Shown here: piece by piece, positions 23,880 through 64,000 of the stretch
How the letters are laid out: every line of letters begins with the position of its first letter
Position numbering within the stretch: position 1 is the first letter of the stretch
Source of the DNA: Flaccisagitta enflata
Taxonomy: Eukaryota
Assembly (NCBI GenBank): GCA_965153355.1
Contig: OZ231126.1
Coordinates: 1,736,001-1,800,000, forward strand
Reading direction: 5' to 3'
Length of the DNA: 64,000 nt
Program-made: the position numbers and the translations under genes
Notes under the pieces: generated by a model
Told to the model about the DNA's origin: nothing
What the model saw: only the letters and a program-made list of their open reading frames with translations
Databases searched by the model: none

Positions 23880-25650
23880 TGATATCGTATGTATTCACAC
23901 ATCAAAATAATGTGTAGCACAAAAACAAAGAGCAAATGGTAAAAAAGCAAATAGCAAATCGTTACAGGTAAATCAAATCACAGGAGGGAGAGTGTATGAA
24001 TGAGGGGAGAGTCCGGGCAAATGATACATTTGAGAGAAAATTTCTCTTTGCGACGTTCAAGCAATTCCTCCCAAGTGAGTCGGTGCAGCGCATGCTGGAG
24101 CTCGGTGACGCTCTCGTTGTACGAGTAACGGAACAAGCTTTGAAAGATGCTGTTATATGCGACGCGTAGTTGTCGACGGTTGTCACGATTTGCAACGTGG
24201 ATGATCTCAACACCGTAGGTTAAGATCGTTAAGCAGTGAGCCTCTTAGAGTTGGAGAAGAACCATCTCATCAGGACGCCCATCGATGCAAATGATTGAGT
24301 TTAGGGCACGATAGAAAGAGCAGAGCTTTTCTTTAGTGCAGCAGGAAAACTTGACACCGCTCTTCAAAGTCACGCCGAGGTAATTCCATGAATCAACCCA
24401 TGGAATCAAAGTGCCGTTGATGCAGACTTCGAATGTTGGAGGGCCACCTTTCCCAAAGTAAAGATTTTTTGTTTTTTTTTGGGATTGAGCATTATATCAC
24501 ATTCACGACAGTAGTCACTGCACAGATGAAGGATACTTTGAAGGTCTTTTACGGATGGGGCTAGTACAGCCATGTCGTCGGCATAGAAGAGCGTGGCAGC
24601 AAATATGCCACGGACGTGGCAACAAAAGCCGGCTTTTTTGAGAATATTGATGAGTTTGTCGACGTATATGCCGTAGAAGTCGGGCAACAAAACTCCTCCT
24701 TGACGGACTCCTGCTGACACATGAAACCATTCGATGTAGACGTCGTTCCAGCGGACACGGCAGAAAAGTCCATCATGCCACGTGATGATAATATCTATGA
24801 ATATCTTTGGTACATGGCAATCGAGTAATTTGATGAATAGACCCGAGTGAACGAGGCGATGAAATGCTTTACTCGCATCTAAGTACGAGCAAAAGACGCG
24901 ACTTCCATTCTCGATGAAGTAATTGATTGTCTCTTTCAAACAAAATAAGGCATGACTTGTGGATTTCTTCCGTTTAAATCCGAATTGGTAGTTGGAAGTA
25001 ACCAAGTGTTCAGAAAAGACGGATTTCAGCACATGCTCAAATATCTTTGAGACACTTGGAGAGATGGTAATGCCTCGATAATTACCGACATCACCATGGT
25101 TCCCTTGATTATCTTTGATAATGGGAACAATGAAGCCAAAACGAAATTGTTTTGGAATGAAAGAATGATTAAGCATTCCATTGAAGAGGCGGGTGAGGCG
25201 ATGCAGCATAGGGAGTGGCGCGTTGAGAAAGTGCTCTGCACATAGACCATCGTCATCAGCACATTTGCCTGATTTAAGCCCACTGATAGCATCAAATACA
25301 TGTTCAAACGTGATCCTGTACTTGGAACAATCGCATGTGTCATTATGAACTGAGCAGAGATCATTATATTTTTTCTTGAACAAACTGTTCAATTCAGCAA
25401 CCTTGACAGGATTGTTGGGTTCTGAGTTGCGTTGGAATGCTCTTTTGAACGAATCAGCTATTGCGTTGTTAGAGGTGCAGCCGTCAACAATAGGAGAGAA
25501 ACCATTGTTGTTTTTATTGTGGAGACATTTCCATGAACGCCAGAATTTGTTGGTGTCGCAAGACTCCAAAGCGTCGTGGAGGTTATTCCAGCATCCTTGA
25601 TTGGCTGTATGTTTACGGCTCGTAGTTTCAACTATCCGTCCATTTATATT
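23880..25650 (-). mobile_element. 5'-truncated, decayed LINE (non-LTR retrotransposon)
   Basis: ORF2 RT region followed by a C-terminal remnant and a T-rich 3' UTR; boundaries approximate. Confidence 0.85.
23979..25640 (-). pseudogene. LINE ORF2 reverse transcriptase pseudogene
   Basis: Motifs NYRGITI, QFGF, LDASKAF, GVRQGG and FYADD. Frameshift near 24470 in an A-run, then IPWVDSWNYLGV...LTYGVE with an internal stop, ending at about 23979. Confidence 0.9.
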
Positions 25651-28600
25651 CTGACTGACTGATGATGGTAGACGCATAGGAAATTAGGCAAAGATTGGAA
25701 AATGGCGTTGCGATGGTCTCGTTCTTTAGGAAAAATTTCAACAATCTGAGAGAGGTAAAATGAAAGGGAAGTTGGGCATGAGATATTGGTCAACCAATGA
25801 AAACAACATGAGATCAGGATAGACATTGAGCAGAAACAGCCAATAACAACATGTACATCTTATCCAGAGGCCATGAAGCCAGATCAATACACTGCCCCCG
25901 CCCTGCCCATCCCACCAAATTCACCCATGTCACCCCAATAATCAGTTGACCGGGCAGACGATAAAAAGGATGCAAATGCAGGACGCAGGATGCAGGATAA
26001 AATGATAAAAAACAGAAGATAAAACAATAAATAGCCAGACGACAAAAACAACAATAAAACACCAAAACACTAAAATGATAAAACTTACTTTATGGTACTC
26101 CATGGTTTCCCACCGGCGTCGTTATCGTCCTGAATGTCAGATGTCCGTTCATATGTCTCTGCAATAAAAGGATGAGAGACTTATGAAAGATATGAAATTC
26201 CAAGGGCACACATCATGAAAATCTAGCTAATATCAAGCATTACATTACGAAGCGATGCCATAAACAATGTCTACGCAAATAAAAATCGAAGCATGAAAAT
26301 ATAAGTCGACGAAAGAAGTAGAAGGAAAAATATGTGAGAACACGCAATTCCAAATCAATAAAAGAGCAAGGCGAAACGGGCAAAACCATGCCCACCATAT
26401 GGTTGCAGCCAAAATGGGCAAAAAACAAAAGGCATCGATTTAGAAAGAAAGAAGAAAAAGACATTCACGCGAAGAGCATCATCATTCCCATACTTATAAA
26501 TATCACACATTTCCACACTCTGCCCCATTTTTGTAATTTCATAAATTTCAAAAATCCAACATCTAGTTTCTGATCGTGGGAAACCCTAAAAATAAAAAAC
26601 CCATACTGCAACGCAAAAAAAATTACATTAATATAACTACAAACTCCGCCCCTCTCCCCAGCCTCCGCCTCTTACATCCCCCCCCTTCCACAGAAGGAGA
26701 TCGACGAACAACATGGCGACAAATCTTTCCCCCCCCCCCCCCCCCCCCCCGGAAGAGGGGGACCAAACCAAGCGCAGTGATCAATCCGACAATCGGGAGG
26801 TGGAGACGAGATGGAGACGAGGAAGAGAAGGCGCCCGTTCTGTTAAAAAGTTAAGAAGGGAAGGAGGGGGGGGGGGGAAGGGGGGAACGGGCCTAGGAGC
26901 ACCTCTAGACTGGGATTTGACTTTGAGGTGGAAAAGTATAAGAGGAGGGCATTTAGTAATATGTACACCATACGAAATTTATTTGTAAACAAGATTTTAA
27001 AGGGACAAATGTCAAATACAAAAAAATCTAAAAACTAAGTGATACGATATGTTCGTATCCAAAACAGCAGAATGACAACAAAAGATAAAACAATAAATTA
27101 CTAACCCTATAAATTAAAAACAATTATACGAGGGAAATAAACCCCAAGAACCATTTCAGGATGACCACGTCACCTGCCCTATCTCCAAGGCAGAGAAGCA
27201 CAAACTCGAATCTCCAACAGCTCGTCAAATTGCGATAATAAGGCGAGGGAAAAGACGAGGTTGAGGCGACGTCGACGCCCGAGAATGGACCCAACGTCGT
27301 ACATCATCGTCGATGGAAGGCCAGAAGCCACACTTGCGCCTTGGGTCTTGGAGCTTCGTTGGGATTTGACGGGAAACTGCAGATGTCTTCAGCATTCAAA
27401 CGTTGACACCAGCAGAAGCTATAATGACAACAAATGAACTGACAGGACAGGAAAGCATTTGGAACAGGTAAAAATTACATGTCAATGCGAAATGAATCAA
27501 TGTTGATTTGGATATTGGAACACACAACTTAGTAACAGGGAAAGAGACGAAAGCATGGATGATCAGAACCAAATATGAATTTGCACACTCTTTGTCAATA
27601 AAATCAAACAGAGCAACATCATTCATATCTATAGTTACTAAGTGACAGGCCCATGCGCCCAAAATTTCTCTCTCCCAAAAACTTAGCTTTTATTAATGCG
27701 TCCAAATCCACAATCTCGACGTGAAATGTCTCCTTAATGGGCGTCGGACTCGAATTCTCCGGACATGAATAACGGGTCCATTATCGCCCAAGACACCCCG
27801 CTGCAACCTGCTTGTGCCCCCGTGTTGCTGCGTCTTCTGCTTCGTCGGTTGCTGTGATCATTGTTGTATCAGACTCTGACTCGTCATCACGCTGCTGTTG
27901 TTCAGCATCCATGTTAGCCTTATCCACATGTCATTTCTACTACCTTGGGGATGATTTTAACAAAACTGCTGGTTTTATAACTGTTTTGTATAGCCTGTAG
28001 GTGCAAGAAATGGAATCCACCAGCTTTTAAATCATCCTAAGGCCGGATTTTGAGAAAAAACACGTTTTTACCATCCTGAGGTACAGGTCATTGAATTTTC
28101 CCAATTTTATCTTGTTTTGCTCATATTTTTTTAACAAAAAGAGCTAGATATGCCAGATTGGTCCCATTTTAAAGATCTGCTCAAGATCTTTCCAACCGTC
28201 ACCAATTTTTTGTAAATCCGTTGAAAAATGCCTGAGATATAAGCACTCAAACATAGGGTATGTTATGAGGAATACTGACTATCTTCCTAGACGTTGATTC
28301 CTTGTGATAATTCTACTTGTTTTGCTCATAACTTTTGAACGAATAAAGCTAGAAATGCCAGATTGGTCTCATTTTAAAGATTTTTTAAAGATCTTTCTAA
28401 CCATCACCAATTTTTTGTAATTCCGATAAAAAATGCGTGAGTTAAGACTTGTCAAATGTAGGTGATGTCATGGGAATCTTGGAGGATTTTCCCAACTCTT
28501 CTTCTCACTTTGTCTATTGGTTTGTCCATCAGTCAGTGGGTTGGTTAGTTGTTCAGTTGGTCCATCAGTTCGTAATACTTAGCTTTATTGAAGTTTACAG

Positions 28601-41165: not shown

Positions 41166-41694
41166 TCGACCATATTTATTCCATGTATTTTTTTCCCGTC
41201 AAAGTCAGATAAAAGCAAGCTAGCTCTTTGACAATCATACATGAAGGAAGTGCTCCCCTAGCCAGATTTGTAATGAAGTATAACGGTTCACGCTTGTATA
41301 ACTCGGAACTAAAAGGTTGTGGTCTTGTATCTATTGACTACTTGGAGATCGAATTGATACGATTTAACAACTAAATCATGCGAGCAAAGAGATTGCATAA
41401 AGCAATAAATCGGGTCTGACTGAAGACTAAAATAGTCCCAAATGAACCAATCTCGTTTTTCCTCTTTTTCTCCAGAATTCTTCATTCGCGACCTCTGCAG
41501 GCCTTTGAAGATCTTCTTTACTGTGCACTTACCAAATCTCTTTCTGTCCGTCTTTCTTCCTGTGAATTCTGTCTTTCTTTGCTGAACACATTTTCAATTC
41601 TCTGTCTATCTTTTGTCCTTTTGTTTCTGTCTGTGACACCTGAGTATTTCTGTAAATTAGTTTGTCAACCGTTAGTCAGAATCAGAATTTGGAG

Positions 41695-42290
<596 letters not shown>

Positions 42291-42574
42291 GGAAGAAGGG
42301 AAGAAGGAAAGAAATTCAAACGACTGAAAATAGACTGACTGATCGGGGATGGGTACACATCAAAAGGGAAAGTAAGAATGATGAAAAAGCAGAAGAGAGA
42401 CAGTAAGATAATGACAGAGAGAGAGAGATAGAGAAAGAATGACAAAGTCAAAAAGTGTATATTGAGCCGGCTGTAACGTGTTAAGCCAACGGGCTGTTTC
42501 TTATCTTTCCTCTCATCGTCCTTCTTATCTTCCTTCTTTATCAGACTTTTTCATCTTAGATCTCAATCTCTGTA

Positions 42575-45702: not shown

Positions 45703-47428
45703 AAATAACGCTGAAGCTTGGAGACTGAACAAAGGAGGTGAAGATGAATTAGAGAAAGTTGAAATACAAGCTCTAAAGAGCCTTTTTAGCTTGCCATTGC
45801 ACACACCAACAGCGGCAATCATTTACACTTTCGGCACATTATTCACAAAGCAACGTGTCGATAAAAAAATCCTCATCTATCTTCACAAACTACTACAGTA
45901 TGATTTTTCTGAACTGTAACAAAAGATGAGAACATAGCACGAAAAGTAGGAGAGCTAGCTACAACCTGAAAAAAACACTTGGAAGATATGAGTTTGCAGA
46001 TTTTTGATGAAAAATCCCAAGGACTTTTTCTTTTATTTTGATCTGATTAATGCATGTGAATCAAAAGGCAGATTCTACCAAAAAAGGCTGTTTTGTAGTG
46101 ACTGTCTTTCTGTAAATCATTATCATTTCTGAACGGTTTGAGCTACAGATCCCAGATTGGTCTCAAATGAAAGATATTTTGATGTGGTTTTAGGAGAAAA
46201 ACAAAGACAGCGATTTTTAAAAAGAGTTATCCTGCCAAACATGAACGATTTTGTTGTTTCGGGATAAATTGATTGCAGAATTGACTTTCAGTTAACCAAA
46301 TGCATTCAAAACTCAAAAAAAGTCTGTCTGTTGAGCTTTTCCCAAAAAGTACTTCAAAATAGCTTTCATTTGGGACCAATCTGGCATCTGTAGCTCAAAG
46401 GGTTTGGAAATGAGAGCTATTTAAAAAGAAACAGTTAAGCAGATATCTTTATGACTTTTTCCATTTTTCCACCTTTCAAAATTTCAATCCCAATTGAAAA
46501 AATAAGATGGATATCAGTTTTCTTTCCAAAAAACCTTTGGAATCTCTTAACAAATAACTGCAAACTTTCACCTTCTGATAGCTTCTTTCAGAATTTGGCT
46601 AGCTCTTCTAGTTTTTGCATAATGTTCTCATCTAATGTTACAGTTGAAAAAAATCATACTGTAAATAAAGGTGACGATGCTTGGTTAAAACAAGCCCTAT
46701 CCACTCTTTGCTCAATGAACACTGGGTGGTACCAAAAAACAATAGCAATCCTAGAAGAATACGATCTCCCAACTGACTTGGACGACATAAAAAAACTGAC
46801 AGAAGCGGGTTGGAGATCACAAGTCACAAGAAAAATAGAAAAGACCAACAAAGAACGCCTCTTAGAGTCATGTTACAAAACCGTGGATGGCATCAAAACT
46901 CCCAAGACAAAAACTCAATACATGGCTCGCGAACTAGACAGGAGAGAGTACATCAGAGCTCCTGACAGTATCATCCTCAAGACAACAAAATATGAAGCTA
47001 AAACCATCATAATGGCGCGGTATGGGATGCTGCAATGTGGACAAAATTTTAAGGGGTCTGATGATGTTAATTGTAATACCTGTAATGTAGCTGATGATGA
47101 AAATCATCGCCTGAATTATTGTACTAAATGGAAGGACACCAACCTTCTTAATGCTGATATAACAATTGATTTTAAAAATGTATATTCCAATGATATCGAA
47201 ACACTAAGAGTGATACTACCATACATTCAAAAGGTGTGGAACGTAAAAAATGCAAATGGAACAATGCATACTAATTGAATTAATTTGTTTTGTCATGTAC
47301 TCTTGTATTTATTTTGATGTTTCTTTGAACCTATTTATTATTTATGTACAATTTTGTACCGCTCATAACAATTCATTTGTTAATGTGATGAACGCACATT
47401 TGATAAGCATTACAAGTCAAGTCAAGTC

Positions 47429-47505: not shown

Positions 47506-47679
47506 AGTGTCCGATGGAAGGTGGCAATTAACGGATCGTAGAATGATACAGGAGGGGATTTTATATAGTCTACTGAGAGCACCGTGTCATTTCTTGATCC
47601 ACTGTGACGAATTGAGATGGAAAGGACAAGTTATGTCGGAGTAATGACAAAGGAGAGGAAGAGGGGGAATAAGAAGAGG

Positions 47680-47950
47680 ACGAAGAAGAAGAAGAAGTAG
47701 AAGAAGAAGTAGAAGAAGAAGAAGAAGAAGAAGAAGAAGAAGAAGAAGAAGAAGAAGAAGAAGAAGAAGAAGAAGAAGAAGAAGAAGAAGAAGAAGAAGG
47801 AGAAGAAGATGAAATAGAAGAAAAAGAAGAAGAAGAAGAAGAAGAAGAAGTAGGAGAAGAAGTAGAAGATGGAGAAGAAGGAGAAGAAGAAGAAGAAGAA
47901 GAAGAAGAAGAAGAAGAAGAAGAAGAAGAAGAAGAAGAAGAAGAAGAAGA
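47680..47950. repeat. (GAA)n microsatellite
   Basis: Direct repeat. Confidence 0.95.
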
Positions 47951-47954
47951 TGGA

Positions 47955-48470
47955 GGATTCGAAACTATTGTACAAACAGTGCGAGCGAGCGAATATGGAA
48001 TATTCGTCAGTGTTTTGCGCGGGTGAAAACTATGAAACGGAACATAGTTGAAACTATCCGTTTCTTTATGGTAAGTGTCAGTTTCCAGACTACCATCATT
48101 TTTAGTCGCGTGCACGCGACTCTACAACCCGCTCCGTCGGTCGGTCCGTCCGTCCGTCCGTCGGTCTGTCGGTCGGTAACACTTTGCTTTTTTTCGTCTT
48201 TTTGGGTCGTCTGGAGTTATTTTGACTCATTTTTTTGTTGTTTTTGGGAATTATTGGTTGCTTTTAGTCATTTTTGGTCATTTTTGATCATTTTTGGTCA
48301 TTTTGGTCATTTTGGTCATTTTGGTGATTTTGGTCATTTTTGGTCATTTTTGGTCATTTTTGGTCATTTTTTTTTACACTAAAAGCGACATCGAGAAATG
48401 GAATTGACTTGCCCTCTTCCATTGTAAATCTTATCTTTGGTTCGATATCATTCATGATATCAAACAGGAT
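47955..48470 (-). pseudogene. Penelope-like element RT C-terminal fragment split by a HINE
   Basis: FDIMNDIEPKIRFTMEEGKSIPFLDV, then the insertion, then NDGSLETDTYHKETDSFNYVPFHSFHPRKTLTNIPYSLARTVCTIVS; these are typical PLE RT thumb motifs. Confidence 0.75.
48098..48370 (+). mobile_element. 3'-truncated large satellite HINE
   Basis: Matches 9180-9450; sits in a T-run. Confidence 0.8.
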
Positions 48471-48495
48471 AGATGGTTGGCCCAGTGACATTTTC

Positions 48496-48906
<411 letters not shown>

Positions 48907-49230
48907 ATATGCTACATTTCATTTATCCTCATGTTACTGTCACCCAATTGGCCATCCAACTCAATTCAAACCTTTCCTCTTTAAAATTTGAATAAAAAAC
49001 TTGTCTGAAATTTAAGTGGGACATTTTACGAGTGGCGTTTCATGACAAATTTGTCTCGGGCAGGAAAGTAAGCCATCAATAAGTTGTCAACCGTTCATTT
49101 TATTCACACACATGCTTTTTTTTCGAAATGTGCCAAATGCCTCATTCTTTCCATCGTTCGTTTGGCTTAATTCGCTCTAGCTGTGTTCACTTGGTTTTAA
49201 TGAAAACTGTTGAAACTTGAACGAAATATC

Positions 49231-51115: not shown

Positions 51116-52098
51116 ATGTTGTTTTTGATTCCACGAAAACTTTTTAACCTCGGTCGGAAGGACGGATGGACGTATGGACGAATAGACGTTTTGATGTGCA
51201 AAATATTGCCATCTACAGCACTGATTTCCTCTACGAATTGGTCGACAATTCCTTGGAAAAAAAGTTTGGACGTATCAGGATATGGATGTATATCTGGATT
51301 CTGGAATATGAGCTTTTATTCATGGCTAAGACTTAAACACAGATCATTCGAGAACATTTAGCTACAGCGCAGAGAGAGATGGTAGAAATTTTCGGTACTT
51401 TTACGACAGCCCCCATCGATGGCATGAAATAATTCTTCTTATTGCAGCATTTACTGCATCATGAAGCGATTTCATTTCTCTCATGATAGGATTTCAGACG
51501 TGAACTTGCTGATTGAGGTATCACACACTTACTTTGTTTAATTGTTGATCGCGAAGTTGATTTTCTTTCTGATGAAAATCCTTTTTTGGAAATCTAGCGA
51601 TTTTAACTTTTAAGTTGGTTGTTGCTATGACTAATTCTTCAATGTAAGCTCTAAATTAAGGGATATCCATTTAAGGATGGATTTTAGCTCAGGATTTGAT
51701 GCTCGTTTCACTTCGTGAATCAGTCAAGTGTGATCAAGCATTACTCCTTTTAGTCCTTTACGGTCAGGTGTCAATTTTTGAAAAAGAAAATCAGACATCT
51801 GTGATGCTTTTTGTTTCATCTCTATCAACAGAGGTTGGCGCCAAAGAGACAATGACAAGACACATGAATTGGGACAAGAGACAAGGACCCCTGGTCGGTA
51901 TTTTGATATCGAGGAGAAAATCATTAAATGTTTTAACTCATTTTTTTGGAAGTTGTTGATCAATGAATGGAGACCGGATTTGTTCTTTTTACGATCATTT
52001 TTTAGGGTTGGCCTTGTTTGATACTGCCAATAACAGAGCCTTCTAAACCGATTCCTTTTCTTTTCCATATTGTGTGTGGTTTCTCCAATCTCTGTCTT

Positions 52099-52454
<356 letters not shown>

Positions 52455-52640
52455 GTTTTTGCGGTCGTCCGTGTGGCGTCTCTACGTTGATCTCCCGTAG
52501 TGAAGGCGCCTCGATTTTGTCGCGATGAGTCGAAAACAAAAGATCAAAAAATCGAATTTCAATTAATCAAAAAGTAATTTTCAATGAATGACAAAAAGAC
52601 AATCAACAAGTTTGATGACTTTGATATTTTCAAATCGCTT

Positions 52641-56742: not shown

Positions 56743-56821
<79 letters not shown>
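56743..56821. repeat. (GA)n microsatellite abutting the LTR element
   Basis: Direct repeat immediately before the TGT start of the putative LTR. Confidence 0.95.
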
Positions 56822-56823
<2 letters not shown>

Positions 56824-57450
56824 TGGAATATCGCGTTAGATTTTACCATTTTGTGATTATTTGTAATTGCATATTCTCTTTGGTTCGCCCTGTTTGTTGC
56901 CCATTTTGTGAATTTATATTATTGCTGATTTTCTTTCTTTAGTTATCAGTTGTAATGTTATTCGCTCTTCATTCCTGATCAATCTTGGGGTGCGTTTCCT
57001 TACCTGGTGAGTTTTGGATGGACTTGGTTGGTTGGTTAGTTGGTCAGTTTGGTTGGTTGGTCAGTTGGTCGATTGGATTAACTAGTTGTTTAGTTATATA
57101 GTTCTTATGTTGTTGAGTTATTGAGTTATTTAGGATGATAGGTTGTTAGGTTAATCTCTTTTCTTCTTTTCCCCTCTTCCTTTCCTTTCTATTATTTCAG
57201 CGTTTTTGTACCCCTTTCAACCATAGAAGATATTGAGATGGCGACGACGAAAGACCTTATCCAAATGGAGACTTGATGACTTTGAGTGGATTCGTGGTGT
57301 TGGCGTTGTTGGCGCAGCGCGTGGCGTGGCATAGAGAGGATTGGCGCGGTCGTGACGCAGCGACTGCCGGACTGATTCATCATCGTCAACGTCAGCGCAA
57401 AGGTACTCTGACGGTTGGAGACTGTATTCTACGCGGTTCTTTACAGTACA
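56822..57450 (+). repeat. Putative 5' LTR of the BEL/Pao element
   Basis: Begins with TGT directly after (GA)n and lies upstream of gag. The 3' boundary is uncertain: the second LTR is outside the window and no clear PBS was identified. Confidence 0.5.
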
Positions 57451-57497
57451 AAAACGATACCAGAGATTGATCAAGATTTGTGTTTTATACCACCACA

Positions 57498-60155
57498 ATG
57501 AGCACAAAAAATACACAGGCCCCGGGTGGCGACGGAGAACCGCCGGTGTGGAAGAGGCGCGACATATCGAGCGTGAGAAGAGAGCTCTATCTCGAATTCG
57601 CTGTCGTCCAATCGGCGTTCAGCGTCGCTTCCGTCAGTAAAGAAAGGGCTGTGTTGATAAGAGCGAATGACGCGGCAAGCAAATTTCAAAAACTGTTGAA
57701 CGAAAGAATAGAACAATACAACGCGTGCGTGATAGACGACGTCTCAGCTGAACATGCGGCAAATGACTTGATGATAGACATATCGGCGTACCGGGCGGAG
57801 CTGGATACATCCCTCAAGCCGTTGTACATAGAAGAGGCAGGTGAGGGTGAAAGGGATGTATCATTCGACGCCGGCTCTCCCATCGCGAAGGAAGAGGCGC
57901 CGGAAAGAACGGCGCCGTCGCGATTCGAGAGACTGAGACAACCACCAGGAGGTGGCATAATGGATAAAACAATGCGCATATCAGAGAGCGAGGAGGAGGA
58001 GGCGCCAAACGAGGAGGAGGCTCTCAACGAAGAGGAGACTCCAAACGTGGAGGAGGAAGAGAGAGGAGCGGAAGAACCGGAAATGGTGGAGGAAGTAGAC
58101 GGCGCCGAAGAGCATCGAGATAACGCCGGCGAAAATCAGATCGCAGAAACAGCGGCGACAGGCGGCATAATGAGCAGGATCGCGGGGATGTTTAGAGGAT
58201 CATCAACGCCTCAACAAGCGAATACGGCAGAAGCGGTCGTGGCGTCAGCAGGGAATCCGGCGATCCACGTGATACCCGCGACGCCGGCCGAGAGGACGCC
58301 GTCAATGAGAAGCGCCGGATCTATCGCGAGATCGATACAGGCGAAGAAAGACAGAGACGAGGAACAGAAAAAAGAGAAAGAACGAATGGAAGCGAATAGA
58401 AGGCAGAGTGAAGCGGACGAGGCGGAAGCATTGAGAAAGGTAGAGGAAATAAGAAGGCAGAGAGAACAAAACGAAAAACTTCACCAAATCAAAGTGAAAG
58501 GGATCGAACGGATCCACCGAGAACAACAACAAGCGATCAGCGACGACGATGAGGCTTCAGGCGCCAGAGATGCGATGAGGAGGCTCGAGCAGTCCGTCAA
58601 CGGGGGCGAAGAGAGAGCCTTGAATCCCAACGCCGCGGTGGAGAGCTGGGCAAAAAATAACGCCAGCGGCTCCGTTCCGACGACGCCCGTGAGAGGAAAA
58701 GTGCCACAACAAAGGAAAGGAGAAAAGAAAGTGGCATTAAAACTCGACCTCGATAAGATCCAACTGACGCCAAAAGGAATCACGAAACCCATTGTTCCTC
58801 CAGAGAAGGCGGTTAAGAAGCCAATCGTTCCGTCGGCAAGACCCAAAAAGGTGAACAAACCGACAATTCAAAAATTGCCACCTAGAGAATTCAAACAAGA
58901 AAAAGAAAAAAAGGATGTGAAACACCTGAGAGAGAAGAAAGAGAAAATCGAGAAGGAAACAATGGAGCTCATGGCAAGGCTACAAGAATTGCACAACTCG
59001 GCGCAGCAGGTGGAGGAAGGCTTGGAGGAGCGCGATGAGGAGGAGGAGGAGGAGGAAGAGGCGCCTAAGACGCCAACCACACCAGGTTGCGCCGGAAGTG
59101 CAAACCAGGAGGAATTCGTGCGAGTCCAAATTCAGATGTTTGCAATGGCTCAGCTGAAAGAAGCTCGCCCGGTGAAGAAGTTTGCGGGTGTGGGCAAAGG
59201 AATGAGCTTTGCCAAACATATGTTGAAATTTGAAACGGCCTTGGAGATAGTCGGTCTGTCGGAAAAAGCCAAATTGAACGAGTTCCAACATTACTTAGAG
59301 GGCGCAGCATTCCAGTTGATAGAGGCCGAAACTCTGGAGAAAACGGACGCGGGAAAAGCGGTGAGAACGGCAATTGAGAAACTAAATAAAAAATTCGGCC
59401 TAAGAAAAGAATCGGCGATGGAAATGCTCGAGGAGTTGTTGCAAGGAAAACAAGTCGGTGAAAAGGACCATGGCGGCTTACTGATGTTCTATTGTAAGTT
59501 GCAGAGCATTTACACGTTGGCAAAAAGCACCGGCAGAGGAGGAGAATTCGAGAATAAGATGATCATCGAATCAATCCTCTCAAAAAAGACCCCACACCTG
59601 ACAGCGAAATGGTCAAAGAGAGTGGTGAAAAACATGATGTCAGATGGGGAGACGTTGGGCTTTGAAACGTTCCTCGAATTCCTTGACACCGAGCACACAA
59701 TCGCCGAATTATGCTACAGAAACTCGAGTCAGGCGCAGAATAGCAAGCCTGTAGGAGCAGCCAAAGTAGCGGCGACAACGGCGACTGCCCCGGCGAAAAG
59801 CGGCGGTAAACCGACGGTAAATGCGACAGCGGCCAGCACAACGGCTGCAGCACCGACGGCCGGAAGTTGTGAACGTTGCGGAGGCCAACATCGCATTCCA
59901 GCGTGCGACATTTTCAAGGGCTTGTCCAGCGCGGATAAGAGAAAATTTTGCATAAACACTCGTATATGTTATCTGTGCCTTGAGACCGGGCATATGGCGA
60001 GAAACTGCAAATCGACGGAAATGTGCGCCATCTGCGGCATAGGTCACCACACCTTGCTCCACCCAGACGAATCCTCGGGTGCCCCGCCTACCCCGGCGGG
60101 AACCAATGGAGGAGGAGGAGGGGGAGGAGGAGGAGGAGGAGGCGGAAACGCATGA
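57498..60155 (+). CDS. gag: BEL/Pao Gag (885 aa) with a long acidic/charged N-terminal region
   Basis: ATG at 57498; knuckles CERCGGQHRIPAC, CYLCLETGHMARNC and CAICGIGHHTLLH; poly-Gly tail, then TGA. Confidence 0.9.
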   Translation: MSTKNTQAPGGDGEPPVWKRRDISSVRRELYLEFAVVQSAFSVASVSKERAVLIRANDAASKFQKLLNERIEQYNACVIDDVSAEHAANDLMIDISAYRAELDTSLKPLYIEEAGEGERDVSFDAGSPIAKEEAPERTAPSRFERLRQPPGGGIMDKTMRISESEEEEAPNEEEALNEEETPNVEEEERGAEEPEMVEEVDGAEEHRDNAGENQIAETAATGGIMSRIAGMFRGSSTPQQANTAEAVVASAGNPAIHVIPATPAERTPSMRSAGSIARSIQAKKDRDEEQKKEKERMEANRRQSEADEAEALRKVEEIRRQREQNEKLHQIKVKGIERIHREQQQAISDDDEASGARDAMRRLEQSVNGGEERALNPNAAVESWAKNNASGSVPTTPVRGKVPQQRKGEKKVALKLDLDKIQLTPKGITKPIVPPEKAVKKPIVPSARPKKVNKPTIQKLPPREFKQEKEKKDVKHLREKKEKIEKETMELMARLQELHNSAQQVEEGLEERDEEEEEEEEAPKTPTTPGCAGSANQEEFVRVQIQMFAMAQLKEARPVKKFAGVGKGMSFAKHMLKFETALEIVGLSEKAKLNEFQHYLEGAAFQLIEAETLEKTDAGKAVRTAIEKLNKKFGLRKESAMEMLEELLQGKQVGEKDHGGLLMFYCKLQSIYTLAKSTGRGGEFENKMIIESILSKKTPHLTAKWSKRVVKNMMSDGETLGFETFLEFLDTEHTIAELCYRNSSQAQNSKPVGAAKVAATTATAPAKSGGKPTVNATAASTTAAAPTAGSCERCGGQHRIPACDIFKGLSSADKRKFCINTRICYLCLETGHMARNCKSTEMCAICGIGHHTLLHPDESSGAPPTPAGTNGGGGGGGGGGGGGNA

Positions 60156-63100
60156 CTAGCCGTACCTAAACAAAATTCAGTCTTTAAAGTCGGTGGAGAT
60201 GATGGAGCATGGCGTCTGATCGTACCGTTATACGTAGTGGGGGAAAATGGAGAAGAGATTGGCACTTATGCTCTTCTCGATGGTGGTGCGAACCGAAATG
60301 TTGTGTCGGAGTCGATATGTTCACGTTTGGGAATAGGAGGAAGAGACGTGAACATGAAAGTGACGACCTTGGACAAAACTGTGGAAGGTGTCAGGAAAGT
60401 AGCGGATGTGATGGTGAAAGGTACAAATGGTTTTGAACTAAAGCTGAGCAATGCGATCTTTGGAGAGATAATAGCCACAGAGGGTGACAGACCCCCCAGA
60501 ATCGCGGATGTGGAGGGGATTGAACACTTGAGCGACATCGAGTTTCCTGCTTTTCCGGAAGAGAATGACGCCGACAGCCAAATAGGAGTGATTATCGGGG
60601 CTGAACATGCCCGAGTATGGAGCTCTGGCAAAAGGCGCATCGGCGATGAGTCACTTCCGGTGGCGCTGGAGACGGGATTCGGCTACTGTCTGATAGGCCC
60701 CAAGAAGAACGTTGACTCGCATTGTTTTGTTTGTAACCATGTTTCCTTTCAGAGTTACCCATCCAACACAGAGAAAGAAATGAAAAAATGTTTTGCGAGT
60801 GAATTTGAAAGAGCAAAAAACGACGATGAAACAATGTCGGTGGAGGATAGATTTGCTCTTAGGCAACTCGAAGAATCGATTGTATGGGATTCTACAGTGG
60901 AAAGATATCGAGTGAGCCTGCCCCACAAACGCGGAAGAAAAGCGACGGCAGAAAGGATCAACAAAGTGGATTCGAGCGGCATGGCATTGGACCGCCTGTG
61001 GAGAACGGCACGACAAATGCGAAAGGACCCGGAGAGGAGAAGGGTCACATTTGAAACAATGCGTCAATTCGAAGCGAAGGGCAGAGTCGTGAAACTCGAT
61101 CCGAAAAAGCACGCAGCAACACCGTCGGACAGGCCTAAGTGGACAATCCCCATCCATGTCACAGATAAGCCAGGGAAACCTGGTCAAGTTCGTATCTGTC
61201 ATGATTGTAGGGCATCTGTGGGGGGTGTGTGTTTGAATGATTGTCTATTAGATGGCCCCCAATTGGCATGTGATATTCGTGGCGTGTTGATGCGTTTTCG
61301 TGATGGGGGTGAAGTTGCGGTAGGGGCTGACATTAAAGATTTTTTCCATGAAATCTATATTGCAGAGGAAGACGAAGGCGCCTTTACGTACTGGTGGTTT
61401 CCGACGGAGGAGATGGACGAAGCGGAATTGAATGGATTTTTGGGTCACGTGTTCGGCGCCAAAAGTTCCAACTTCGTCGCGATCTTCACGCAACGGTACC
61501 ACATCAATCAGAGGGCGAGAGAATACGGTCCTCAAGTAGTGGAGGCGTCAAACCGCAATCTGTACGTCGACGATCTGTTGAAGTCTTTGCGCAACACGAA
61601 GATAGCGCGTGATTTCCGGATCGCGATCACTGCGGCGATGAAGGATGGCGGCTTCACTCTCTGCAAGTGGCGCTCATCAAGGCCGGAAGTGCTGGAGGAG
61701 GCGGATCCGGCGCCGGAAATGAAGGACTTTCGGAATGCCGCAGCCCCCGGAGAAGACGTGGGAAAAGTTCTGGGGATGCGTTATTCGTTCTCAGCGGACA
61801 AGATTTCTTACGCGCCAGAAAAAGAAAAAGCGGAAATGAAAGTGGAAACGAAACGCCAGATGCTACAAGTAATAGCGTCATTCTTCGACCCCCTCGGATT
61901 CTTGGACCCTTTCGTGATTTGGGCGAGATTCATTCTGCAGCAAGTGATGAAGACCGCGATCGGATGGGACGAGAAAAACATAGAGGAAGCATTGTTGGAA
62001 GCATTTGCTGTGTGGCAAGGAGATTTTGAATTCCTCAAAAACTTTGAAATTGAACGATGGACTGCGACGCTGGAAACTCAGGATGGTGAAAAACAACTGA
62101 TGGTGTTCAGCGATGCGAGTAGTAAGGGATACGGCGTGGTGATATACGTGCGCCGGAAGACGCCGGATGGAAAGATTCACGTAGCGATCGTATGCTCGAA
62201 GGCGCACGTGGTGCCGGTGAAAGACGCTGAAGCTGGGCACCACGATTCGATGCCGAGGCTGGAATTGCAGGCCGCGCGATTGGCGGCAAGGATGAGATCA
62301 TCTGTGGAAAAAGAGACAGGGAGTTATGACAGTATCATTATGTGGACTGACTCTGAATGTGTGATTAAGCAACTTAATGATACAGTCACCCGATTTAAAG
62401 TTTATTTTTCCAACCGCATCTCAGAAATACAGGCGTTGACGAGCGTGTCCGAGTGGAGATGGGTGCCTTCCGGGGAAAACCCGGCCGACGACTGTACCCA
62501 TGGTCTTCTGGCGCGTGACCCGAAATGGCGACGTTTCCACAGTGGGCCGGAATTTTTGTGGCAAGACGAGACGGAATGGCCGGAAAAGCAGATCGTGTCG
62601 GAACCATTCCCAGCGCATATCCTGGCTACGGCAGTGACAACTCCTGCAGTGGAAGAGACTTGGATATCGAGAATATCCCGCGGTGTTGCCTCGTGGCCAG
62701 GAAAAGTACGTCGGATCGCGCTTTTCAAAAAGACGATAATGCGATGTGTAGTGAGACGACGCCCCGCAGTCGGTGGCAGCGGTGCGCAGTCAGCTACACT
62801 GCGCGAGCTGCGAGACGCGGAAATGCTTCTGATACGGGACATTCAATCGCGGCATTTCAATGAAGAGATAAAAGCGTTGACGACGGCGCCAAAAGGCCCC
62901 ACAAAGAGACATAAAGTGCACGCGAAATCGACGATAGTGGCATTGAACCCGTTCATCGATGCGAGTGGGATACTGCGCTGCATGGGACGTCTCACAAACT
63001 CGACGGATCTGAGCTACGACGCCAGACATCCAATAATACTCCCTCATGACGACGACGAAGTGTTGGTTTTGATAAGACTATTTCATGAATGTCACCTTCA

Positions 63101-64000
63101 CGCTGGCGTGGAACATGTGTTGGGAGAGTCGCGACCCCGTTTTTGGATCACAAAAGGGCGCCGCGTCGTGTCGCGCGTGGTAAAAGCATGCGTGGGATGT
63201 CAGAGACACTTCAAAGCGCCGGAGTCGCAGCAAATGGCGCCGCTTCCCGCAGAAAGGACGCATGCTTGTCGGCCCTTCGAGAATACGGGAGTAGACTGCT
63301 TTGGACCTGTGAAATGCAAAATTGTTGGAAGGGCATTTCACAAAGTGAATGTGGCTCTTTTTACGTGTATGGCGACGAGAGCAGTGCATTTCGAAGTATT
63401 GCGGAGTATGGACACATCGAGCTTTATTGATGCTCTGCAACGCTTTTGGGCGAGAAGACCGGCGGTGAGGCGCCTGTTTTCAGATTGTGGCTCAAACTTC
63501 ACTTCCGCCGAGAAAGAGATTGCGGCGGAAGTCGCGGCATGGAACGCGTCGTCGACGAAGGATTTGCGGCTGCTTGGGATCGAATGGAAGTTCAACCCAC
63601 CGACATCCCCTCATAGGGGTGGTGTGTGGGAGCGGCTTGTGAAAGCCGCGAAAAAACATTTAACGTTCGTATTGACATTGGACAACCTGAGCATCGAGAC
63701 GTTGACGACAGTGTTGGCTCAGGCGGAGTTGGCGATGAACTCGAGACCGATCACACACATCCCTGATGAGCCTGGAGTCCAAGCGCTGCGTCCGATTGAC
63801 TTTCTGTGCCCTGGTGTATTTGCGGCGTCGGACTGTGACATTCTTCCTCCATCGCCTCCGGATGCAGTGTGCCTTCGTTACAGTTGGCGCCAATCGAGAG
63901 CATTGGTTGACGAATTTTGGAACCGGTGGTCGCGGGATTATGTTTCGGCGCTACAAGCGCGGCCGAAATGGCGTTTGTCGGAGCCAAATTTGGAAGTCGG
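60156..64000 (+). CDS. pol: BEL/Pao Pol (protease, RT, RNase H, integrase), in frame with gag after a single TGA, open to the window end
   Basis: Manual translation shows no stop in about 1281 codons. Motifs: ALLDGGA (~60270), ADIKDFF (~61326), YVDD (61563), FSDAS (~62106), HHCC zinc site (63084-63200), GVDCFGP, SDCGSNF, GGVWERLV. Confidence 0.92.

Follow-up and report, generated by a model that had tools for sequence, protein, structure and literature searches.

A conserved in-frame UGA-CUAG between gag and pol of a BEL/Pao retrotransposon from Flaccisagitta enflata and its putative programmed readthrough

The analyzed window, a stretch of 64,000 nt from contig OZ231126.1 of Flaccisagitta enflata, carries about 7 kb of the 5′ part of an intact-looking BEL/Pao (Belpaoviridae-type) long terminal repeat (LTR) retrotransposon of a marine animal, the downstream end of which lies beyond the window end. 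The control of the Gag to Gag-Pol ratio in retroelements is a classic recoding question, and in this element gag and pol occupy a single reading frame interrupted by one stop codon. It is quite probable that Gag-Pol arises here by programmed readthrough of a conserved UGA-CUAG, with the UGA located in the context GCA-UGA-CUA-GCN. The putative UGA readthrough, which had been proposed in the original prediction from the window alone, was supported by the conservation of the stop, by its nucleotide context, by the selection acting on the frame and by the missing pol start.

The single in-frame UGA that had been reported between gag and pol in the context GCA TGA CTA GCC was present at 60153..60155 (+ strand), and this TGA, the proposed readthrough codon, was the sole stop in 2167 codons. 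The frame extended from 57498 to 63998 with the stop at codon 886, so the accompanying claim that it contained no further stop or frameshift also held; the remaining two forward frames contained 123 and 86 stops. Upstream, a stop at 57468-57470 preceded the ATG at 57498. The junction sequence was GGC GGA AAC GCA TGA CTA GCC GTA CCT AAA, within which the conserved 11-nt cassette GCATGACTAGC (60150..60160, + strand) covered the stop with its preceding Ala codon and the CUA after it, and extended two bases into the following Ala codon. It had further been stated that no ATG precedes the codon of the protease catalytic Asp, and this was confirmed: the stretch from the stop to this residue, LAVPKQNSVFKVGGDDGAWRLIVPLYVVGENGEEIGTYALLD, was devoid of Met, and the first in-frame Met was found after the Asp. 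The tetranucleotide CTAG followed only one of the 2167 in-frame codons, namely the TGA itself, and no TGA-CTAG would be created by any of the 872 single-base changes that could introduce a stop at another place in the frame. The sequence TGACTAG occurred three times in the 64 kb, both strands included, and the presence of TGA-CTAG at the end of gag exceeds chance expectation. In published work on stop codon recoding, UGA-CUAG, UGA-CU and UGA-C are given as readthrough-promoting contexts.

Parts of the element were found in runs of one organism and in those of marine metagenomes from several studies. Sibling gag proteins formed two 90%-identity clusters (97% and 86% identical to the window gag) with 12 members in total, of which three broke off earlier, while all nine sibling ORFs (open reading frames) reaching the end of gag stopped after ...GGGNA. 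Five of these nine were full-length ORFs of 887 aa, the contigs that carried them being 3.5 to 4.9 kb in size. The sibling gag ORFs (882 to 887 aa) both started with MSTK... and ended with ...GGGNA, as in the window. Siblings carried glycine tracts of unequal length ahead of this end (13 or 11 Gly, or GGGGGGGAGGG), and the last four residues were always GGNA. A sense codon in sibling copies had been named beforehand as the observation that would speak against a programmed stop, and none was found in the copies examined.

The DNA of the copies was represented by contigs of three DNA runs aligned to the window at 80% likeness, with 60103-60154 masked as a repeat that reached into the stop codon; the junction evidence consists of three contig ends among the rows listed, to which 89 further rows exist. 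The contig ends abutted 60170 and 60173; in register, the first read ACG GCA TGA CTA GCG ACG CCG, the second read AAT GCA TGA CTA GCT GTG TCT AAG, and the third, 15 letters long, matched the first; consequently, all three junction ends listed carried the motif. The cassette-bearing contigs originated from marine-metagenome runs X7 and X2, which belong to other studies, and their flanks had diverged, whereas the 11 nt were unchanged. The expectation that TGACTAG is kept while synonymous sites vary was thus borne out in the two diverged metagenome copies and the window, the next Ala codon being GCG, GCT and GCC, respectively. The pol ORFs P0190 and P0193 began with MSKT..., as would result if the second contig were translated from its GTG-TCT-AAG-AC, with GTG as an alternative start; since these starts match the GTG situated two codons after the stop of TGA-CTA-GCT, the protein and DNA evidence are tied together. 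Nucleotide differences among copies were assessed from the 40 best-supported differences among the rows listed (493 further variant rows exist). Third codon positions accounted for 32 of the 40, first positions for five and second positions for three. This excess of third-position differences was observed on both sides of the stop, which indicates that both gag and pol are under purifying selection in stop-bearing lineages.

The wider family was searched with a 451-residue query spanning the stop (entered as X) against 1.84 billion representatives, which yielded 8658 matches, of which the best 150 were examined. The listed matches and proteins from other searches were pooled and re-scored (n = 177) using per-protein phmmer coordinates; the pooled relatives were drawn from 50%-identity representatives, and the counts given below hold among the matches listed. 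Gag-only relatives were the most numerous (100) and ended no more than 65 residues past the last Cys-His box. The 25 pol-only relatives all had their first residue 3 to 49 codons past the stop position; none began ahead of it. Proteins spanning the junction without a stop were also present (37), all of them sharing 23 to 28% identity with the query, while no fused Gag-Pol of more than 28% identity was found among the matches listed, including those of a dedicated search of the 1191-3793 aa length class. It had been claimed that BEL/Pao elements are usually fused and that a stop between gag and pol would be rare. A single fused ORF is indeed the usual description of BEL/Pao, and the distant relatives were fused; within this clade, however, the arrangement is not rare, with 100 gag-only against 37 fused relatives listed. 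Terminal Ala was found in 45 of the 100 gag-only relatives, compared with 11.7% in the preceding 30 residues (binomial P ~9 × 10−17). Such an excess would be the expected outcome of a conserved GCN codon ahead of the stop.

A second class of gag-only relatives was also observed among these matches, ending with Leu (17/100) or Ile (5/100), often as ...NP[VT][LI]. Members of this class, the tails of which lie 40 to 60 residues past the Cys-His box, include P0090, P0105, P0111, P0128, P0155, P0156, P0177 and others. Such tails may point to another recoding signal that is conserved, and the sister group with gag ending ...NP[VT][LI] may use a second signal of its own.

In the relatives listed, the pol starts assigned by the gene caller were scattered from +3 to +49, some of them past the catalytic Asp. 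Thus, pol is in frame, lacks a start of its own and is under selection, from which it follows that it is probably expressed by translation through the UGA, as part of a Gag-Pol fusion. Under programmed readthrough, most ribosomes would terminate at the UGA and release Gag, whereas a minority would accept a near-cognate tRNA at this codon and continue into the protease, reverse transcriptase (RT), RNase H and integrase, so that the readthrough fraction would set the ratio of Gag to Gag-Pol. Eukaryotic UGA readthrough inserts Trp, Arg or Cys. The signal would be the short linear UGA-CUAG context, acting without a downstream RNA structure. Folding of the sequence downstream of the stop was no better than that of shuffled sequences, with minimum free energy z values of 1.25 (80 nt) and 0.48 (150 nt), pseudoknots not being modelled. 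No Rfam family, including the selenocysteine insertion sequence (SECIS), was detected in 56800-64000 at E-values up to 1, the 3′ part of the element lying beyond the window. Given that neither a downstream fold nor an Rfam family was found, the site is read as belonging to the short, structure-independent type of readthrough signal.

Several observations weigh against programmed readthrough. The stop adjoins the masked interval 60103-60154, and hence no row of the variant table covers it, and junction DNA came from three variants only, namely the window and two others. The relatives of 30-60% identity were compared as proteins, not as DNA, and they display the break between gag and pol together with terminal Ala, but not an in-frame break. 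Terminal Ala was absent from 55 of the 100 gag-only relatives, some of which may possess another signal or may have been cut by a contig end. Finally, the protease active site is LLDGG rather than DSG/DTG, although it is conserved in nearly all close relatives. LLDGG was common to the window, P0002-P0008 and P0026-P0031, and one representative, P0102, had DSG. In the work on Sinbad, protease motifs other than DS/TG in Pao-like elements are viewed as likely inactivating (PMC554778), a view that does not fit a DGG motif conserved under selection.

Three other explanations of the stop were weighed. A private inactivating nonsense mutation, for instance from CGA or TGG, in a family with a normally fused Gag-Pol would agree with the 37 distant BEL/Pao relatives in which no stop interrupts the junction, and with the frequent occurrence of suitable codons in the frame (TGG, 32; CGA, 18). 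This explanation is nevertheless extremely improbable, being contradicted by the stop position shared by all nine sibling gag ORFs, by the in-frame TGA-CTAG retained in two diverged DNA copies, by the 25 pol-only ORFs that start just past the stop, by the lack of any fused form above 28% identity among the matches listed, and by the uniqueness of CTAG among the 2167 codons of the frame. It is still very unlikely that the stop is a hitch-hiking defect, that is, a stop of one master copy conserved by descent in a non-autonomous lineage that uses Pol in trans. The family is indeed highly repeated in the host, with word depths in run X1 that sum to thousands; however, a pol not translated in cis would decay, yet all seven full-length pol relatives (52 to 64% identity) were intact, and differences in pol fell mostly on the third codon position. 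Moreover, the break and the terminal Ala persisted across representatives at most 50% identical to one another, and the flanks of the cassette diverged while its 11 nt remained constant.

Somewhat less improbable, though still unlikely, is a conserved stop with Pol produced by another route, either splicing that removes the stop, downstream non-AUG initiation, or selenocysteine insertion at the UGA. The CTAG ends in AG and hence offers a potential splice acceptor, but the tract before this AG is purine-rich and lacks a pyrimidine tract, the nearest upstream GT (~60080) would give an intron of 80 nt, a length not divisible by 3, and no in-phase GT...AG was present. A sample of about 6% of a host poly-A RNA run placed no reads and was uninformative on expression or splicing. 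Joints in the alignment, made at 80% likeness, were not taken for introns: each was a skip within one contig and was not backed by a second run. Initiation at a non-AUG codon could be suggested by the one variant with GTG two codons past the stop; however, this GTG is GTA in the window, and the relatives listed have no conserved pol start, their starts ranging from +3 to +49. UGA is also the codon for selenocysteine, and a SECIS would lie downstream of pol, beyond the window, while the Rfam search of 56800-64000 revealed none. Against all three routes, the entire 11-nt cassette fits a known readthrough context.

Among known systems, gag and pol of the gammaretrovirus MuLV (murine leukemia virus) are separated by a UAG stop with a pseudoknot downstream, and its Gag-Pol is produced by suppression of this stop. 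The BEL/Pao element resembles MuLV in its in-frame gag-pol stop and would follow the same logic of setting the ratio, but differs from it in having UGA, not UAG, and no downstream fold above shuffled sequences (pseudoknots not modelled). The linear signal is the one described for mammalian UGA-CUAG genes and for the UGA-C of alphavirus nsP3/nsP4, where no nearby structure is required; in those cases readthrough extends a cellular protein or makes the viral replicase, whereas here the signal would join Gag to Pol. In the Ty3/gypsy elements Tj1, Tosmo1-3 and Tcry1 of fission yeasts, a strictly conserved GAA-TGA-CT between gag and pol is interpreted as readthrough in a preprint, which also states that transposition of Tj1 had been shown to require its stop (10.1101/2022.12.06.519325). 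The element in the window shares with them the in-frame TGA followed by CT(A/G) and a short conserved cassette that takes in the codon preceding the stop. It differs in its superfamily (BEL/Pao) and host kingdom, in the preceding codon (GCA here, GAA there) and in the fourth base after the stop, which is G here and completes CUAG.

With respect to classical BEL/Pao elements (Pao, Sinbad, BEL, roo), the Cys-His box, the protease's LLDXG and LIG, YVDD, DAS, the D-D-E spacing and the order protease-RT-RNase H-integrase are shared, while the conserved stop and the DGG protease motif are distinctive of the element studied, its distant relatives being fused. A gag-pol stop is also said to occur in the silkworm element Kamikaze, but this statement of the original prediction was not confirmed, as the passages found are limited to the protease motif of Kamikaze and its phylogenetic position. 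As described for Sinbad, one ORF of that element encodes gag- and pol-like proteins, and its integrase has the spacing D(62)D(49)E (PMC554778).

The presumed 5′ LTR and leader are placed provisionally at 56823..57497 (+ strand), the 3′ LTR falling outside the window. The presumed 5′ end begins with TGTGG immediately 3′ of a (GA)n microsatellite, and the G+C content rises from ~0.43 to ~0.51 at the entry into the element. In the gag ORF (57498..60152, + strand; 885 codons), a long N-terminal part rich in charged residues precedes a conserved core; a triple Cys-His box is also present. The N-terminal part (57498-59170), located upstream of the conserved core and common to the sibling gag ORFs, is unusually long (~560 residues), with a high content of Glu, Lys and Ala and with acidic repeats. 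The triple Cys-His box (59868..60062, + strand) has the structure CX2CX3HX4C, CX2CX4HX4C and CX2CX3HX4H with an HH doublet. In the Sinbad study, the hallmark Gag box of Pao/BEL elements is given as CX2CX3-4HX4C, CX2CX2-4HX4-5C and CX2-4CX3HX4H, in many cases with an HH doublet (PMC554778), and residues 791-855 of the frame fit all three patterns, including the doublet. The Pfam zf-CCHC match in gag had an E-value of 0.0017, which is under the curated cut-off (a weak zinc knuckle). Between the box and the stop, a (GGA)n tract encoding 13 Gly (60108..60146, + strand) forms the linker.

The pol ORF (60156..63998, + strand) continues in the gag frame, encodes the protease, RT, RNase H and integrase, and is cut by the window end. 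Pfam families identified in it were Peptidase_A17 (E-value = 4.7 × 10−36), Integrase_H2C2 and DUF5641. The motifs, all on the + strand, were ALLDGGA (60270-60290, catalytic Asp at 60279-60281) and CLIGP (60687-60701) of the protease, YVDD of the RT (61563-61574), FSDAS of RNase H (62106-62120), and HHCC (63084-63200) and D(62)D(48)E (63288-63638) of the integrase, the latter spacing being computed from the motif positions. Consequently, all BEL/Pao hallmarks of pol were present, namely the protease's LLDXG and LIG, YVDD, DAS, the expanded integrase spacing and the order protease-RT-RNase H-integrase. The seven intact pol ORFs to which the window pol was 52 to 64% identical, the closest full-length ones in the 1191-3793 aa length class, were 1290 to 1339 aa long.

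No second copy of the element was found within the 64-kb window. Pattern searches for related loci based on the pol alignment gave 125 matches in metagenome contigs and 98 in viral contigs, none of which was confirmed. The DNA flanking the element is AT-rich (G+C of 0.32-0.44 compared with ~0.51 in the element) and contains many microsatellites. The long ones, at 56743-56822, 41420-42406, 47570-48984 and 51724-52566, were of the (GA)n, (GAAA/GGAA)-like, (CA)n and (AGC/TCC)-like types; the (GA)n tract adjoining the presumed 5′ end was 79 to 80 bp in size, and similar (GA)n tracts recurred in the window. Elsewhere in the window, 425 stop-free codons at 24406-25683 (− strand) carried RT motifs of the non-LTR type (LINE, long interspersed nuclear element), including ...FYADDMAVLA..., and this region is probably a LINE fragment. 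A further 279 stop-free codons at 46439-47278 (+ strand) had a Cys/His-rich end and no assigned family, and may be part of another mobile element.

No report of readthrough or of an in-frame gag-pol stop in BEL/Pao elements was found in the literature, although recoding surveys or supplementary tables may hold one. The words frameshift, stop codon and readthrough do not occur in a survey of BEL/Pao elements (PMC3118150). Thus, the mechanism and the signal are known, while their putative use in BEL/Pao elements appears to be new as far as the literature search reaches, and the understanding of the readthrough mechanism itself is unchanged. The chances are about evenly divided on whether the element represents a large undescribed BEL/Pao clade, mostly marine, in which the fused ORF has been replaced by a structure-free Ala-UGA-CUAG cassette over divergence reaching down to ~30-50% protein identity. 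If programmed readthrough is true of these elements, it would be the first reported for Belpaoviridae, and BEL/Pao would become a third group of LTR retroelements with readthrough, beside gammaretroviruses and some Ty3/gypsy elements. It would also represent convergence on the short signal of alphaviruses, fission-yeast elements and mammalian genes, as well as a natural and deeply conserved example of the 4-nt CUAG context sufficing in invertebrates. For the annotation of such elements, it would follow that a copy should not be called dead because of an in-frame TGA-CTAG at the end of gag.

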